Assembly (NCBI GenBank): GCA_964572145.1
Contig: CAZNES010000005.1
Span: 21,642-85,641, forward strand
DNA: 64,000 bases
Direction of reading: 5' to 3'
DNA from: an uncultured Syntrophobacteraceae bacterium
Lineage (GTDB): Bacteria > Desulfobacterota > Binatia > UBA9968
Shown: one piece after another, positions 1 through 6,653 of the stretch
Numbering within the stretch: position 1 is the first letter of the stretch
Layout of the letters: each line of letters opens with the position of its first letter
Notes under the pieces: model-generated
The model's input: only the letters and a program-made list of their open reading frames with translations
The model's database searches: none
Told to the model about the DNA's origin: nothing
Position numbers and translations under genes: made by a program

Positions 1-789
1 GCTGCCGAATTTTTCGCCAAGCGCTGGATCGACGCGGAGATCCGTAAAGGAAAACGGGGCGGCGCTTTTTGCGCGTCGCCTTCGCCGAAACTCCATCCTT
101 ACATCCTCTGCAACTACACCGACAATTTGCGCGACGTGATGACGGTCGCGCACGAGCTCGGCCACGGCCTTCACGGGTGCTTGAGCCGCAGGCAGAGTTT
201 TTTCAACTACGATACGCCGCTCACGACGGCGGAGACCGCATCGGTCTTCGGCGAAATGCTGGTTTTCGATTATCTGGTCGAGCGCCAGACCGATTCTCGG
301 GTCCAGGTCGCGCTCATTGCCGGCAAGCTCGAAGACATCTTCGCCACCGTCTTCCGCCAAAACGTCCTGACGCGTTTCGAAGAAGCGGTGTTCTCGAAGC
401 GCCGCGCGGGAAGACTGACGCCTGAAGCGATCGGCGATCTTTGGATGGGAGCCAATAAGCCCTACTATGGAAACGCAGTCGAGATGCCCGACGGATACCG
501 CTGGGGCTGGTCCTACATCCCACACTTCATCCACAGCCGCTTCTACTGCTACAGCTACGTCTTCGGCCAGCTTTTAGTTTTGGCTCTTTATCGGTTGTAC
601 CGCGAGCAGGGAAAAAGTTTTGTCGCGAAATATCTCGCGCTGCTCGAAGCCGGCGGGTCCGATAGCCCGGAGGCGCTGCTCAAGCCATTAGGCGTCGATA
701 CTCGTGATCCAAAATTTTGGCAGAAGGGATTTGAAGAAATCAGGGGGCTGGTGAAGAGGTTGGAAGGGCTGGTGGAAAAAGGCCGATAG
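1..789 (+). CDS. M3-family oligoendopeptidase F-like metallopeptidase (C-terminal part; 5' end lies outside the window)
   Basis: Frame 1 is open from base 1 (AAEFFAKRWIDAEIRKGKRGGAFC...) into ORF 127..789. Zinc HExxH motif is present in 'VAHELGHGLH'. Confidence 0.85.
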   Translation, partial: AAEFFAKRWIDAEIRKGKRGGAFCASPSPKLHPYILCNYTDNLRDVMTVAHELGHGLHGCLSRRQSFFNYDTPLTTAETASVFGEMLVFDYLVERQTDSRVQVALIAGKLEDIFATVFRQNVLTRFEEAVFSKRRAGRLTPEAIGDLWMGANKPYYGNAVEMPDGYRWGWSYIPHFIHSRFYCYSYVFGQLLVLALYRLYREQGKSFVAKYLALLEAGGSDSPEALLKPLGVDTRDPKFWQKGFEEIRGLVKRLEGLVEKGR

Positions 790-801
790 TCAAACGCTGC
801 G

Positions 802-1617
802 TTAGTCAGGATTCTCTGAAAGCTTGCCTTGTATTCCCAGCCAGTTAGCCAGTGCCCGTTCGGCGACGCTGTCGTGAATGAAATACGCCCCACGGTTGAA
901 TGACCCGCGATCGGAGATCAATCCCTTCCGTGGCATATGGTCGACGCCCCAATAACTCTGTCCCCGCAGTGTGATTACAAGCGCTGAACCAGCCTTTGCT
1001 CTCGTAACGATTTCTGTAGTTACAAATTTGACTACTGCCTGAGCGGATGGCAGAGCGTCAACGACACGCGGAGGAATGCGCCATCTTCGAGAGTGGTATG
1101 GGACAAGCTCGATGACCGCCAAACGCTTCGCCAGATAAGACAATGCAGCTTGGTAAGTTTTTAGGTTTTTTTCCCGCTGAATTGCCTTTACGAAGCGCCA
1201 CAACCTGCTCTCCCAATAACCAAAGCCTCCATGCCATGAAAAAGCTGGATTAAGCCAAGGAAATGGGTAAGGAGTGTCCGCCAGCTGCTGCTTAAGGTTC
1301 CGCATCAGAACGGATCTCACAAGCGGAACCTCACGTTCCCCAAAGTAGTCGTGTGCTCCGAATCCAGGATTAAGCTGCAGCAGGAAGATGTTAGCCCTGG
1401 TGATGTCACCTATATAGGGAAGGGGTAGCAGGTCAGCGAATAACGCATCTTCATCTTCCAACAAATACTTGCTGCGTGTAAACTGGCGGTAAGAACCACA
1501 CATAACGCAGTCCACGTTATGCTCTTTAAGAACCTCGCGGTCTCTCGGGAAAAAGAACGGCGGTTCTCCCGAAGCCACTTTGGTCCATTGTCGGGCCAGA
1601 GATCTTAAGGCATACAT
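802..1617 (-). CDS. Hypothetical protein (271 aa), lower GC than the bulk genome; possible UDG-superfamily-like fold (inference only)
   Basis: Long ORF that starts 11 nt after the stop of the duplicated amidohydrolase fragment. Motifs are 'ANIFLLQLNPGFG' and 'AVIELVPYHS'. No family recognised with certainty. Confidence 0.55.
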   Translation of the reverse strand: MYALRSLARQWTKVASGEPPFFFPRDREVLKEHNVDCVMCGSYRQFTRSKYLLEDEDALFADLLPLPYIGDITRANIFLLQLNPGFGAHDYFGEREVPLVRSVLMRNLKQQLADTPYPFPWLNPAFSWHGGFGYWESRLWRFVKAIQREKNLKTYQAALSYLAKRLAVIELVPYHSRRWRIPPRVVDALPSAQAVVKFVTTEIVTRAKAGSALVITLRGQSYWGVDHMPRKGLISDRGSFNRGAYFIHDSVAERALANWLGIQGKLSENPD

Positions 1618-1628
1618 TTTGATTCGAT

Positions 1629-1762
1629 CTACTTCATCCTAAACGCCGGTGGCATGACTTCATCCACGCTCTTTCCCGTCCAGTGCCATTTAGGAACGCT
1701 GTCCCAGACTGCTCGCCTTTGGCTTGAACTTTTTCCAGCAGCTCGTCTTCGTTGAGACGTAG
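1629..1762 (-). pseudogene. Orphan, frameshifted duplicate of the last ~134 nt of amidohydrolase gene 4455..5897
   Basis: Hand alignment to 4455..4589 gives 13 substitutions and one 1-nt deletion. It encodes ...VWDSVPKWHWTGKSVDEVMPPAFRMK*, versus ...VWDSVSKWHWTGKSVDEVVPPAFRMK* in the intact gene. Confidence 0.85.
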
Positions 1763-1795
1763 AGCGATTATCCCGTACGCAATCGCGGTTTCCAC

Positions 1796-2746
1796 TCAAT
1801 ACGGTCCAAGGAAACGCTTGCCATTGAAGTGAATCATGTGGTCCGGGGCGTTCGCTACCCAGACTTCGGTCTCCCACGCAATTTCCCCGAGGTACTTCAA
1901 GAACCCACGACGATCGAGAAATGCCGTCACGAACACCAGGCCTGCTTTACTACCGGCGAATAGCGCTTTCAATTCAGTGAGACGCTTCGGGTTCACCGGG
2001 CCGTGACTCGTTACTGCTTCAATGAGAACCAGCCAGTTCTTTTCGGTGAAATGCACGACCACATCCGGCATCTTGCCGTGCTCCTCGACGGCAACACCAA
2101 GGTCTCGTAGATAAGCGCCATCGAAGTAGGCCCATTTTTTGTGCGTATCGCCGACGTATATGGGCTTGCCGCAAGGAGTAAAGCGCGGACAAAACTCGTT
2201 GATAATTTTGCGTATGAGAGCGTTCTGACCGCCGGGCGATAACCTGATTGCGACACCTGGCGCGAGATCGAGCGGAATATATTGCATGTCACGCACTTGA
2301 GCATATCGCAGTGCGAGCGTTCCGAGGTCCGCTATGTAATGCCGGAGAGCGGTGTTCCACTTGGGCGTGCCAGATTCTCGAATGACGGCTATCGTCCGGG
2401 GTTCAACCTGGTAACAATATTTCGGGCTGTTTGTCGGGCGATCGGGCTGGTCAGGATTGGCCACAATCAGTCCGGCTTGCTCAAACTGGTGCAGCGTGAA
2501 TCTCCGCACGGTTTCACGCGTGTTCGGCGCCCACTTCTTCTGATAATGCTTAGCTACGAACTCCATAATCGGTGTTACGCCTCGGAGCGGATCGCTTGAT
2601 GCGGTCCAAGGCTTCTGCGGCGGCAGATCAAGGAGGGCGAGAAGGGTCAGGGCCGCTCGTTCGTTTCGTTGCTCCGGTGGAAGGCCAAAAGCAATTAGAA
2701 TTTTCTGTGCCTCGGCGATGCGTCGCTTTCGTTGGTTAGCCATCAA
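1796..2746 (-). CDS. Type II restriction endonuclease, BsuBI/PstI family-like
   Basis: N-terminus 'KILIAFGLPPEQRNERAALTLLALLDL' and C-terminal 'MPDVVVHFTEKNWLVLIEAVTSHGPV' resemble BsuBI/PstI-family enzymes as I recall them. There is a 4-nt ATGA overlap with the upstream methyltransferase gene. Confidence 0.75.
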   Translation of the reverse strand: MMANQRKRRIAEAQKILIAFGLPPEQRNERAALTLLALLDLPPQKPWTASSDPLRGVTPIMEFVAKHYQKKWAPNTRETVRRFTLHQFEQAGLIVANPDQPDRPTNSPKYCYQVEPRTIAVIRESGTPKWNTALRHYIADLGTLALRYAQVRDMQYIPLDLAPGVAIRLSPGGQNALIRKIINEFCPRFTPCGKPIYVGDTHKKWAYFDGAYLRDLGVAVEEHGKMPDVVVHFTEKNWLVLIEAVTSHGPVNPKRLTELKALFAGSKAGLVFVTAFLDRRGFLKYLGEIAWETEVWVANAPDHMIHFNGKRFLGPY

Positions 2747-4356
2747 ATCGCCTGGAGGACTTCTGTCACGAGTGCATCGAGAGCGCCTTGAGCCGGAAAA
2801 GTTCCTTCTAGGCGTCGTCCGAGCGTAACCAGAGTTTCTCTTGTCGGATAGCGCAGTGCCCGAAGGTCAGTAGCATTGACTTGCGTGTGTCCGTTGAACT
2901 GCCGGAAATAGGTGTCGAGTGCAGAGCAATTCAGGAATCCCGAAAGACCGCGTGCTAGAGTTCGCTCTAATGGTGCCCCCCGTTCGTGGAAGTAGTTGAG
3001 ATGGTTCTCGAAACCCACGACTTCACAGGGAACATTGTCAGGATCAAAGACGGCTGCCACGAGCCGGCGACGCTCCTCCTTTGCCGAGAATCGTCTCACA
3101 AGCACATACACTCCCGCAGGTACCATGAGTGATGCGCTGTCGGTATTATGCACGATTGCGTTAGGTTTTTTTGCCCCCAATCTCGGCCAGCAGATAAGAC
3201 CATTACTGAAGTGGGTTGAATAGATCAGAGGAACAGTTCCCGAGGTCGGTTCTGCCCGCAGCCACTGGCGGGCGCGGAAGTCCACAACACGCCCGGTGCT
3301 CACGCACAACCTCAGTTCGTCAAGCGTGCATGGGAGCTTCTCCATAGCCTCAGCAAGCGCATGACCATCGTCGTCTGGAACGAGGTGAATAAATGCTTGT
3401 GAGTCGCCGGGTCGCACGACATGCTCGAAAGGCACATTTCGTTGCGCCCCGGTCGGATGGTCGGGCGTGCGGCTCTGTGAGATACATACGAGGGGTTGCT
3501 GCGGCACACCTTTAAGCGCATGAAGAATCAAATTTTCTTGTAATACTTTGTCGTCTCGAAATGCGTAGTCGCGATCCTCAAAGACGTGAAGGCGCGTGAT
3601 ATTTACGTGTCGCAGTAAATGTTGCCTGAAAGGCCGGAAATATGGGCCATTGCAAAAACTCCTTGGTGTAATGGCGATCAGCTCCCCCTTTTTATCTAAC
3701 AGCAATACTGCGAGTGCCATAAAAGCCGTATAAAGATTGCTTGTCTCGATATTGAGTCGGCGCAGGAGTTGGCGAGTCCGCGACTCAGTTCGGAACTTTT
3801 TGTAGGGCGGATTAAGGATGGCGATATCAAATAGGGGATGTTCGGTCCGAAACAGTCCCGTTTCCAGGACGTCCACAGAGGCTTCGATGAAATCAGTCGC
3901 TCGCACTTCCCATTTGCATGTGATCTCTACCGCTGCGCATGCCTCTTCGCATGCCCTTAACGTTCGCTGTAGAGCGGGTAGCAGGGCTTCGTCCCGTTCA
4001 TAAGCCGTCAGGGTGACTTCCCTAGGGCGGGCTGGTCTTGAACAGATTTCAGCGACCCATGCCGCCGTCAATGCTCCGACTCCCGCGCCGGCATCTAGCA
4101 AGCGGATGCGTTCACGACAAGCTGTGCTCATGGAACCCATGAGTCGCGCAGTTGCAGGGGGAGTGAAGTATTGGCCATACTCGCTACGTCGAGCCGAATC
4201 CAATATGGCGCTCAGTTTCTGTCTGGCTTCCTCTGCTGTCCCTAATGGGTCAGGGATCGTAAGCCGTCGGCTTGGGGGTGAGTCGGGATCAGTAGCACGT
4301 CTTGAGCGGGCCTTCGGTGTAGATATCTGTGATCTATGGGTGTGTTTAGACTCCAC
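2743..4356 (-). CDS. N6-adenine DNA methyltransferase (gamma class, Eco57I/M.PstI-like)
   Basis: SAM-binding motif 'LLDAGAGVGALT' precedes the catalytic motif 'ILNPPYKKF'. Also carries 'YGQYFTPP'. At 537 aa it is paired with the endonuclease gene. Confidence 0.88.
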   Translation of the reverse strand: MESKHTHRSQISTPKARSRRATDPDSPPSRRLTIPDPLGTAEEARQKLSAILDSARRSEYGQYFTPPATARLMGSMSTACRERIRLLDAGAGVGALTAAWVAEICSRPARPREVTLTAYERDEALLPALQRTLRACEEACAAVEITCKWEVRATDFIEASVDVLETGLFRTEHPLFDIAILNPPYKKFRTESRTRQLLRRLNIETSNLYTAFMALAVLLLDKKGELIAITPRSFCNGPYFRPFRQHLLRHVNITRLHVFEDRDYAFRDDKVLQENLILHALKGVPQQPLVCISQSRTPDHPTGAQRNVPFEHVVRPGDSQAFIHLVPDDDGHALAEAMEKLPCTLDELRLCVSTGRVVDFRARQWLRAEPTSGTVPLIYSTHFSNGLICWPRLGAKKPNAIVHNTDSASLMVPAGVYVLVRRFSAKEERRRLVAAVFDPDNVPCEVVGFENHLNYFHERGAPLERTLARGLSGFLNCSALDTYFRQFNGHTQVNATDLRALRYPTRETLVTLGRRLEGTFPAQGALDALVTEVLQAI

Positions 4357-4454
4357 TGAAATTCAGCTTATCTTATAAAAGATGCTGCTTTCAACGCAGA
4401 AATCGTTTCCAAGCTCTTGTCCATGAAGTGCCAAGCAATTTAATGACAGGAAGG

Positions 4455-5897
4455 TTACTTCATCCTAAACGCCGGTGGCACCACTTCGTCAACGCTCTTG
4501 CCCGTCCAGTGCCATTTGGACACGCTGTCCCAGACCTGCTCGCCCTTAGCCTGAACTTTTTCCAGCAGGTCGTCTTCGTTGAGACGCAGATATTTGCCGT
4601 TATCTACCAGCGTCTCGCCGTCCACGATCACAGTGCGCACGTCGCGGCTGACGGCGGTTTCGACCAGCGATCTGATCGGGTCGCGTACGGCGCCGAAGGC
4701 GATGTCTTTAAGATTGATGATCGCGATGTCCGCCTTTGCGCCTTTCTGTAATCGGCCCAAGTCGTCTCTGCCGATGAGTTTCGCGCCGCCGAGCGTCGCT
4801 GCGTTGAAGACGTCGCGCGGGTGGCCGGCAACAAAACTTTTCTCCGCCACTCGCGAAGCAAGCGATGCGTAGCGCATATCCGAAATAATATCCTTGGGAA
4901 AAGTATCGGTGCCGATGCCCATGTTGACGCCGGCCTTCAAATATTTGTCGAACGATTCCATCACGATGCCGAGCTTCAAATATTTGAGCGGGCTATAGGC
5001 AACCGACGCGCCGGAGTCGGCGATGATTTTGAGGTCGTCTCCATAAGGGTAAGACAGCCAGCTATGGCCGCTGATGAAGATGCAGTGAGAGAGAGAAACT
5101 TCTGGATCGAGAAAGCCGATCTTATCCAACAGCTCGATCGGCGTGCAGCGTTCGCGCTGCATCACGGTATGGAATTCGAACAGGTTGATCGTCGCGTGAA
5201 TCTGCGCGCGCGCGCCGATCTCTTTGGCGGCCTTTCGAGTTTCTTTCAAAAGCGCAGGCGTGCACGAGTCCACGTGGCCGGGAAAGAGCATCGTCTTCAT
5301 CCGCCCGTTGCAGCCGCCGTCGAATTTTTTCGCGAACTCGACGGCGTGCTTCAATCCTTCACTTCCACGCTCGTCGTTCCAGTCGTACTCCAACCTTCCT
5401 TCGCGGTCTTGAAAGAAGTTGACGTTTTTATAGCTCGGCCCCGCATAGCAGCGGATTCCGACCTCGTCCACCATCGCGACGTAAGGCTCGGGATTTGCGC
5501 CGGCGCCGCCGATATCCAGTGTCGTGGTGACGCCGCTCTTTAAGACGTGGATCAGCGAAAAGCGCTGGCCGATATCCACGTCCTTCAAGTGGGCGTGTTT
5601 CGCGCCTTCGCGCGTCGGCGCGCCGTGAGCGAGATAGTTGGCCGCGAAGTAGTCCAGCTTGTTCGCGTCATTCAGTAGATAATCGCTCGCGTTGATGCCC
5701 GAATGAAAATGGGTATCGATAAATCCCGGCGAGACGAGGCAGCCTTTGGCATCGATCTTTTTGTCCACCGGCTCGGAATATTGTTTGCCGACGAATGAAA
5801 CCCGATCGTTTTCAAAGACCACAACGCCGTCTTTGATGATTTCGTGCTCTTGTCCATTGAAGCCGACAGCATATCCGCCTTGAATCAAAGTTTTCAA
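4455..5897 (-). CDS. Amidohydrolase-family metallohydrolase (chlorohydrolase/deaminase-like)
   Basis: 480 aa with N-terminal 'SPGFIDTHFHSG' (HxH metal motif) and typical amidohydrolase_1 architecture. Confidence 0.85.
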   Translation of the reverse strand: MKTLIQGGYAVGFNGQEHEIIKDGVVVFENDRVSFVGKQYSEPVDKKIDAKGCLVSPGFIDTHFHSGINASDYLLNDANKLDYFAANYLAHGAPTREGAKHAHLKDVDIGQRFSLIHVLKSGVTTTLDIGGAGANPEPYVAMVDEVGIRCYAGPSYKNVNFFQDREGRLEYDWNDERGSEGLKHAVEFAKKFDGGCNGRMKTMLFPGHVDSCTPALLKETRKAAKEIGARAQIHATINLFEFHTVMQRERCTPIELLDKIGFLDPEVSLSHCIFISGHSWLSYPYGDDLKIIADSGASVAYSPLKYLKLGIVMESFDKYLKAGVNMGIGTDTFPKDIISDMRYASLASRVAEKSFVAGHPRDVFNAATLGGAKLIGRDDLGRLQKGAKADIAIINLKDIAFGAVRDPIRSLVETAVSRDVRTVIVDGETLVDNGKYLRLNEDDLLEKVQAKGEQVWDSVSKWHWTGKSVDEVVPPAFRMK

Positions 5898-6136
5898 GAT
5901 TATGGCCTTTCTTTGAAAATATTTACGAAGCGAGAAGTAGCAAATTGGTCCAGGTAAGACAAGTTACTCCTGCCCTCTCCAGTGCAGGTTCTTTGTCGAT
6001 TCTGACAGATTTTGTACAACAACTGTAATAGGGAACGAGGGAGGAAGCGCAAAGTAAGCATGAAAACTGGCTATTCCCGATAGCATCTTTTTGGGCGTAG
6101 TTTTTGCTTAGGACAAACTCTAGAGGTCACGATTCG

Positions 6137-6649
6137 ATGGCAAAATCGGGTTTCCTTGTTCCGTTTGCAGCCTTTATCTTCTTCGCAGTTACATCCTATG
6201 CTGAGCCGAATCTGCCGGGTCCATATCGTGCTACGGTTATCTCCGTAGTTGACGGCGACACTGTAAAGGTAGAGGTACAAATTTGGCTTGGGCTTTATCA
6301 GAAAGTGAAGGTTAGGATTGCAGGGATTGATGCGCCAGAGATTACTAAGCCAAAGTGCACCAAAGAAAAGGAGCTTGGACTAAAAGCAAAGGAGTTTCTC
6401 GAAAGCGTGATTCCTCAGCAATCGACGATCAACTTAACCCAAATCAGTGAGGATGAATTCGGTGGCCGAGTAGATGCTACTATCCAAACAAAGGATGGCA
6501 AGGACGTCGGCGAGCTACTACGAAGCGAAGGTCATGCCTCTCCTTACAAAAAGCGCGGGATGAAAAAGGACTGGTGCGGCCCAGAGAGCCGCGAGGAACA
6601 AGTGTCTCAGAGTAAGCCTCGTCGGGATGTAGCAGTAGATAGTCAGTAG
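6137..6649 (+). CDS. Secreted thermonuclease (staphylococcal nuclease/SNase homologue)
   Basis: Signal-peptide-like 'MAKSGFLVPFAAFIFFAVTSYA'. SNase motifs 'VVDGDTVKV' and 'RIAGIDAPE' are present. Low-GC segment. An alternative upstream start exists at 6104. Confidence 0.8.
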   Translation: MAKSGFLVPFAAFIFFAVTSYAEPNLPGPYRATVISVVDGDTVKVEVQIWLGLYQKVKVRIAGIDAPEITKPKCTKEKELGLKAKEFLESVIPQQSTINLTQISEDEFGGRVDATIQTKDGKDVGELLRSEGHASPYKKRGMKKDWCGPESREEQVSQSKPRRDVAVDSQ

Positions 6650-6653
6650 ATGC

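Follow-up and report, generated by a model that had tools for sequence, protein, structure and literature searches.

What is encoded by the gene that lies beside a restriction-modification (R-M) unit in the genome of an uncultured Syntrophobacteraceae bacterium (GTDB lineage Desulfobacterota; Binatia; UBA9968), and could it serve in defense against phages? The gene lies within a 64,000-nt stretch, referred to here as the window (contig CAZNES010000005.1 of assembly GCA_964572145.1, positions 21,642 to 85,641, forward strand). An original prediction had tentatively taken its product for a divergent member of the uracil-DNA glycosylase (UDG) superfamily, acting with or as a backup to the R-M system. 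In agreement with the description given there, we observed an intact open reading frame (ORF) of 271 codons, which runs on the minus strand from the ATG at 1617 to the stop at 802, shares its strand with the R-M genes, has a GC content of 0.511 (window, 0.571) and starts 11 nt past the stop of a 135-nt orphan amidohydrolase 3' fragment (1630-1763). The coordinates had been listed without a strand; the plus strand of 802-1617 contains no open frame, with stops throughout. The best explanation of the sequence comparisons described below is that the protein belongs to an unnamed sister family of the defense glycosylases Brig1 and Brig3 and is monofunctional. We lean, with modest confidence, toward a stand-alone Brig-type DNA glycosylase that would excise a modified base from invading DNA.

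802 to 1617, minus strand: gene for a 271-residue UDG-fold, Brig1-like putative DNA glycosylase, based on the ORF and its translation, an AlphaFold2 (AF2) model, structural matches and a match to the Brig1 hidden Markov model (HMM)

Predicted fold and relationship to Brig1

The AF2 model of the protein (pLDDT, 90.4; pTM, 0.90) is an alpha/beta fold in which three N-terminal helices precede a central four-stranded parallel sheet, with predicted core strands at residues 77-81 (beta1), 166-170 (beta2), 213-216 and 233-235, and it matches solved UDGs. The best structural matches include the UDG of S. tokodaii, and the weak Foldseek matches were mostly to UDGs, with no match at E<=0.001 against the Protein Data Bank (PDB) and viral libraries. 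The suspected divergent UDG-superfamily fold is well supported by this model and by the structural matches. Searches at the sequence level gave a different picture. The UDG profile PF03167, proposed earlier as a check, did not match the protein at E<=1, and a six-frame scan of the genome with it found two other genes only, both of them canonical UDG genes of the host. Scans of the protein with Pfam, PADLOC (2.0) and PHROGs yielded nothing meaningful, and sequence searches of PDB chains with the single protein and with two profiles returned nothing. When shallow and deep profiles of the protein's family were compared by hhalign to 15 family 4/UdgX-like UDGs from the host genome and its relatives, the probability was 0.1%, and the assignment to UDGs is therefore structural only.

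One profile did match the protein, namely, NCBIfam NF047634 (Brig1), with 25.9 bits and an E value of 5.8e-6, aligning residues 57-180 to profile positions 41-153 (124 residues on 113 positions); the curated cut-off of this equivalog profile is 230 bits. Brig1 is an anti-phage alpha-glucosyl-5-hydroxymethylcytosine DNA glycosylase that acts as a single gene and is directed against T-even phages (Hossain et al., Nature 2024, PMC11078745). NF047634 also matched 19/19 of the first homologues, each scanned singly, as well as 115 of 148 representatives of the family (clustered at 50% identity), with a best E value of 2.2e-10 and no other recurring family. None of the 15 canonical family 4/UdgX-like UDGs was matched at E<=10, and in a six-frame scan of the entire 4.5-Mb genome, the gene at 802-1617 was the sole match. 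Among 401 sampled Pseudomonadota genomes, the profile gave one weak match, in a broken frame, and no true Brig1 orthologue was found either in these or in five genomes that carry homologues of the protein. We conclude from these profile comparisons that the match is specific, that the family is related to Brig1 beyond a general relationship to UDGs, and that Brig1 is the nearest characterized relative of the protein. The previously suggested link to defense glycosylases acting on modified bases was thereby supported.

Conserved residues and a proposed mechanism

The two motifs singled out earlier, LQLNPGFGAHDYFGE (residues 80-94) and LVPYHSRRW (residues 171-179), were located as claimed, each after a predicted strand (77-81 and 166-170, respectively). 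We counted conservation over the 148 diverse representatives of the family and took the Brig1 protein sequence from the supplement of PMC11078745; the residue pairings with Brig1 given here are comparisons of short motifs by eye, with no formal alignment. The segments in question are as follows.

1402 to 1431, minus strand: residues 63-72, the LPLPYIGDI segment before beta1 (Brig1 PDPWVGDL versus LPYIGDI here), with L63, P65, P67 and G70 present in 144-147 of 148 representatives
1336 to 1380, minus strand: residues 80-94, following strand 77-81, with motif A LNPG, the putative catalytic Asn83 and the conserved D90, Y91 and E94
1213 to 1218, minus strand: Y134-W135, the likely counterpart of the base-stacking aromatics Y121-W122 of Brig1 (Brig1 AYWV versus GYWE here)
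1090 to 1110, minus strand: residues 170-176, ELVPYHS at the end of beta2, the likely counterpart of Brig1 ELYPWHS with E147 (Brig1 FELYPWHS versus IELVPYHS here)
892 to 894, minus strand: R242, candidate DNA-inserting (wedge) residue in the loop after the last core strand, Arg in 127 of 145 representatives, by analogy with Brig3 N225 and human UNG (hUNG) L272

The reading of LNPG as motif A held up well. It directly follows beta1, it has the NPG core found in MUG/SMUG and in Brig1 (LGLNPGIG, paired with LQLNPGFG here), and it is near-invariant, with N83 in 147 of 148 representatives, P84 in 143 and G85 in 140; D90 (126), Y91 (131) and E94 (133) follow. The reading of LVPYHS as motif B, on the other hand, had to be abandoned, as this motif follows the second of the four core strands, with two strands still to come, and matches ELYPWHS of Brig1. 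After the last core strand, no motif B of the H/N-P-S type was found, and a conserved R242-G/A-A is present there instead. We infer from the model that the structural counterpart of motif B would be the flexible loop 236-250 that carries R242, for which the pLDDT is low (64-65).

The remaining positions are similarly conserved: residue 134 is Tyr or Trp in 146/148 representatives, W135 is present in 143/148, and in the motif at the end of beta2, P173 is found in 145, Y174 in 147, H175 in 134 and S176 in 145 of the 148; R218 is present in 145/146. Since they are near-invariant across 148 diverse relatives, the motifs, as judged from this comparison, are not due to chance. The Asn and Y-W are 49 residues apart in Brig1 and 51 here, and the Trp and the Glu are 25 apart in Brig1 and 35 here; these differences (+2 and +10) roughly explain why 124 residues of the protein align to 113 profile positions.

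In Brig1, the Y121A, E147A and E147Q changes abolish immunity (PMC11078745). In Brig3, for which a crystal structure is available, N50 of the N-P-S loop is needed for defense, W100 and D127 are required as well, and N225 in the C-terminal loop takes the place of the flipped base; W122 of Brig1 and W100 of Brig3 line the base pocket, and three N-terminal helices are present in both enzymes (bioRxiv 10.64898/2026.02.25.707755). The positions critical for Brig1/Brig3 immunity fall in the shared motifs, and those columns are 87-99% conserved in the family. Homology to Brig1 and a conserved pocket are well supported by these sequence comparisons, while catalytic activity, substrate and defense role are proposed by analogy.

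Such conservation also bears on whether the protein may have kept a UDG fold but no longer cuts DNA bases, acting instead as a DNA or nucleotide binder or as an enzyme on an RNA, nucleotide or ADP-ribose N-glycosidic substrate. We regard this as rather improbable. UDG-fold domains that are not glycosylases do exist, for example, in phage family A polymerases, one of which ranked 12 among the structural matches, and both the lack of a canonical His-Pro-Ser motif B after the last strand and the remoteness of the link to Brig1 would fit such a protein. However, almost no variation is seen at the putative catalytic Asn, at the stacking aromatics or at the base-reading position, and these positions match residues that are needed for Brig1/Brig3 activity.

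As a Brig-type glycosylase, the protein would scan DNA and flip a non-canonical nucleotide into a pocket lined by Y134/W135, where E170 and Y174/H175 would read the base, which is most likely a modified pyrimidine. The attacking water would be placed by Asn83 in the LNPG loop, the N-glycosidic bond would be hydrolyzed, and a loop residue, probably R242, would occupy the gap left in the duplex. Repeated abasic sites in modified phage DNA would then stop its replication, and host DNA, being unmodified, would escape excision, so that no immunity partner should be needed. A cytosine-derived modification is our best guess for the target, because the protein has a Glu at the position of Brig1 E147, by analogy with that residue, with Brig3 D127 and with human UNG, which becomes a cytosine glycosylase through the N204D change.

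Within the family, position 170 is Glu in 98/148 and Gln in 49/148 representatives, and this split may mark specificity subclasses. Covariation of E/Q with other pocket columns is modest and is uncorrected for phylogeny. Trp at position 134 is nearly confined to the Glu-170 class (39/41). It is conceivable, though doubtful at present, that the family is among the largest Brig-type clades with a new substrate range, that Glu and Gln correspond to cytosine-derived and thymine/uracil-derived classes, respectively, and that the Glu-bearing protein would act on a modified cytosine of soil phages.

A scattered family and the variable slot that holds the gene

An exhaustive search of metagenomes returned 1,263 clusters (50% identity) at E<=1e-3 and 649 at E<=1e-10, and none of the family proteins listed has a Pfam domain or an informative name. 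Homologues are present in 58 species-representative genomes from bacterial and archaeal phyla, including Nitrospira (53% identity), Alphaproteobacteria, Chloroflexi, Candidate Phyla Radiation (CPR) bacteria, Acidobacteriota, Planctomycetota, Bacillota, Vibrio, Methanoperedens and Hodarchaeota. The family is phyletically very patchy: the gene was found in 0/40 relatives of the host and in 1/400 other Pseudomonadota species, the latter as a partial match. Copies are carried by the Rhizobium phaseoli plasmid pRphaN671a (locus L107, 1-11460) and by plasmid 2 of Variovorax sp. WDL1 (locus L108); family members in the examined plasmid records are labeled hypothetical protein in RefSeq, and no homologue was found in phage records. 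Around the plasmid homologues, small hypothetical genes extend in long runs, and genes for NYN-domain, nucleotidyltransferase, RtcR and SLATT-domain proteins are close by.

This distribution is relevant to the possibility that the gene encodes an accessory DNA-repair glycosylase for a damaged (deaminated, oxidized or alkylated) base in the cell's own DNA, spread horizontally and with no anti-phage role. The UDG superfamily consists mainly of repair enzymes, Brig1 and Brig3 keep residual uracil activity, most homologue loci have housekeeping neighbors, and a few have ImpB, CinA or UvrD-like genes close by. The last of these observations is weakened by the origin of the ImpB, CinA and UvrD pairs, all of which belong to closely related syntenic sister genomes and are thus non-independent; an apparent enrichment of repair genes was dropped for this reason. 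The very sporadic spread is unlike that of core repair enzymes, moreover, and the host already has its two canonical UDGs, while the closest characterized relatives of the protein are defense enzymes. We therefore consider a pure repair role fairly unlikely.

The gene shares its surroundings with the following elements, and a convergent M3 oligoendopeptidase gene (pepF) ends 12 nt from its 3' end.

1630 to 1763, minus strand: orphan amidohydrolase 3' fragment between the glycosylase-like gene and the R-M pair, about 90% identical to 4456-4590
1767 to 1794, minus strand: sigma-70-like promoter match, 3' of the restriction endonuclease (REase) stop and 5' of the gene, from a consensus scan (9/12 matches) and no commoner than in shuffled sequence
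1796 to 2746, minus strand: BsuBI/PstI-type REase (Pfam PF06616/PF17728)
2743 to 4356, minus strand: Eco57I-like m6A (adenine) methyltransferase (MTase; Pfam PF07669)

The glycosylase-like gene, the MTase gene and the REase gene are all foreign, as their GC content at third codon positions (GC3) is 0.52, 0.52 and 0.60, respectively, compared to 0.67-0.73 in the flanking host genes. Congeners retain the amidohydrolase gene and pepF, and the DNA in between (789-4590 in the window) varies within the genus. This slot is occupied here by the MTase, the REase, the amidohydrolase fragment and the glycosylase-like gene; in one congener (G006) by genes for a dienelactone hydrolase and a DUF4431 protein; and in another (G009) by about 5 kb of other genes, with a dienelactone hydrolase beside pepF too. 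In congeners G007 and G010, pepF is absent from the nearest 8 kb. As for the duplicated 135-nt amidohydrolase end, its two copies are similarly close to the genes of the congeners, and the orphan copy has a 1-nt indel.

Beyond the opposite end of the amidohydrolase gene, at 5897-6653 of the window, lies a low-GC (0.44-0.50) stretch of about 750 nt. Congener G006 lacks an equivalent, and its two flanking genes are separated by 17 nt. The stretch contains an ORF (6104-6649, plus strand) for a staphylococcal nuclease (SNase)-like protein with a signal peptide and DGDT and RIAGIDAPE motifs, whose PDB matches are weak (E, 2e-3) but span the whole SNase domain. The amidohydrolase gene thus has foreign genes for DNA-acting proteins on either side.

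Could the gene be dedicated to the neighboring PstI-type R-M system and be transcribed and transferred together with it, for example, as a back-up against escaping DNA? The shared strand, the gap of only 178 nt after the REase stop, in which no terminator was predicted, and the GC3 of 0.52 common to the gene and the MTase would allow it. In contrast, the duplication that brackets the R-M pair does not include the gene, the pseudogene fragment separates the gene from the pair, Brig1 functions as a single gene, and none of the 60 other homologue loci (935 kb) contains a PstI-type MTase or REase. We also called ORFs crudely around the homologue loci and clustered all those within 10 kb. Around 56 homologues, no recurring neighbor family was detected, the largest comprising 5 loci at scattered positions. 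The cooperation with the R-M system that had been proposed is hence highly improbable, and the R-M pair (1796-4356) represents foreign neighbors of the glycosylase-like gene rather than conserved partners.

The enrichment of homologues near defense genes, also anticipated earlier, is weak. PADLOC matches (Type I and III MTases, a Type IV REase, HKD+Snf2) were seen near a minority of homologues and were about equally common among distal genes of the same loci. In Microvirga lupini (L034, 1321-10759) and M. arabica (L035, 1333-10762), the homologue directly follows, on the same strand, two helicase genes that overlap by 4 nt. The first encodes a DEAD/DEAH-box helicase of 2,133 aa, which is related to PDB 9tu7_Y (E, 1e-41) and to YprA/MrfA, and the second encodes a UvrD-like helicase of 728 aa. 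The trio may be a three-gene defense cluster.

The view that the gene at 802-1617 encodes a stand-alone Brig-type glycosylase thus has to be weighed against several observations. The Brig1 HMM score of the protein is below the curated cut-off, at about one-tenth of it, and the hhalign comparison to canonical UDGs found nothing. The pairing of residues with Brig1 was made by eye, and one-third of the family has Gln in the E170 column, a change that inactivates Brig1. PADLOC and PHROGs have no match for the protein, the immediate neighbors of homologues are mostly housekeeping genes, and the even spread of PADLOC matches over near and distal genes amounts to a weak defense-island signal. In favor of this view are the accessory distribution, the plasmid copies, the foreign GC3 and the variable slot. 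Some homologue contexts are also defense-like, namely, the R-M pair here, the Microvirga helicases, and the MTases, Type IV REase and HKD+Snf2 genes elsewhere. By analogy with Brig1, a role of the gene in defense appears plausible.

Comparison with known glycosylases

The family is large, unnamed and scattered and has been missed by Pfam, PADLOC 2.0 and PHROGs, yet it appears to carry the key residues of Brig1 and Brig3. If active, it would bring soil Binatia, Nitrospira, Chloroflexi, CPR bacteria and archaea into the range of Brig-type immunity and could be a source of new specificities for the detection or mapping of modified DNA bases. If the proteins are repair enzymes instead, they would define a new UDG family, and if the E/Q classes are true, a sequence rule would predict which modified-base phages a host resists. 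A larger family of base-excision defense enzymes was foreseen by the authors of Brig1 when this mode of defense was discovered in 2024 (PMC11078745).

Among the classical enzymes, MUG/TDG (family 2) and SMUG1 (family 3) resemble the protein in their motif A, which is of the G-[IM]-N-P-G type and provides a catalytic Asn. Family 4/5 UDGs (1vk2, 4zby and 2d3y) and UdgX, by contrast, lack any likeness at the sequence level (hhalign probability, 0.1%). Compared to them, the protein has no Fe-S cysteines, has Asn instead of Glu in motif A and lacks an HP[SA] motif B, and its model shows extra N-terminal helices and a helical insertion between beta1 and beta2.

With Brig1, the protein would share the UDG-superfamily fold, with the S. 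tokodaii UDG among the best structural matches, the organization as a single-gene module of about 260-270 aa, and the motifs PxP[YW][IV]GD, LNPG[FI]G, Y-W and EL.P[YW]HS, including counterparts of Y121, W122 and E147. The two differ in that about 10 extra residues separate the W and E motifs in the protein, and the Brig1 pocket residue Q81 is replaced by a variable aromatic in the family (F92 in the protein). The Brig1 motif has Glu where one-third of the family has Gln, and the link to defense islands is weaker in the family. The 42 homologues in the Brig1 paper include neither the two examined RefSeq plasmid members nor the genera that we looked up (PMC11078745). No Brig-type structure occurs among the structural matches of the protein.

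Brig3 is a 5-hydroxymethylcytosine DNA glycosylase that works with BapA (bioRxiv 10.64898/2026.02.25.707755). Going by its description, it resembles the protein in several respects: the first strand is followed by an N-P-[S/G] loop with the catalytic Asn, the pocket is lined by aromatics and has a key Trp, the base reader after beta2 is acidic, an insertion loop is present toward the C terminus, and three helices are found at the N terminus. Unlike Brig3, whose partner BapA is an ASCH-like deglucosylase, the family has no BapA-like or other conserved partner across its 56 loci. Brig2, a UDG-like enzyme active against thymidine-modified Pseudomonas phages, is by description likewise a sequence-divergent UDG-fold defense enzyme, and its homologues, which number in the hundreds, come from several phyla and are often located on mobile DNA in regions of lower GC content, resemble the family described here (bioRxiv 10.1101/2025.10.29.685425).

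The original label of an undescribed component can be retained for the protein's own family, which is unnamed, and not for the kind of enzyme, as Brig1, Brig2 and Brig3 are already published. Judged by its sequence relationships, the gene is a new, uncharacterized member of this group, encoding a putative Brig-type glycosylase of an unannotated family.
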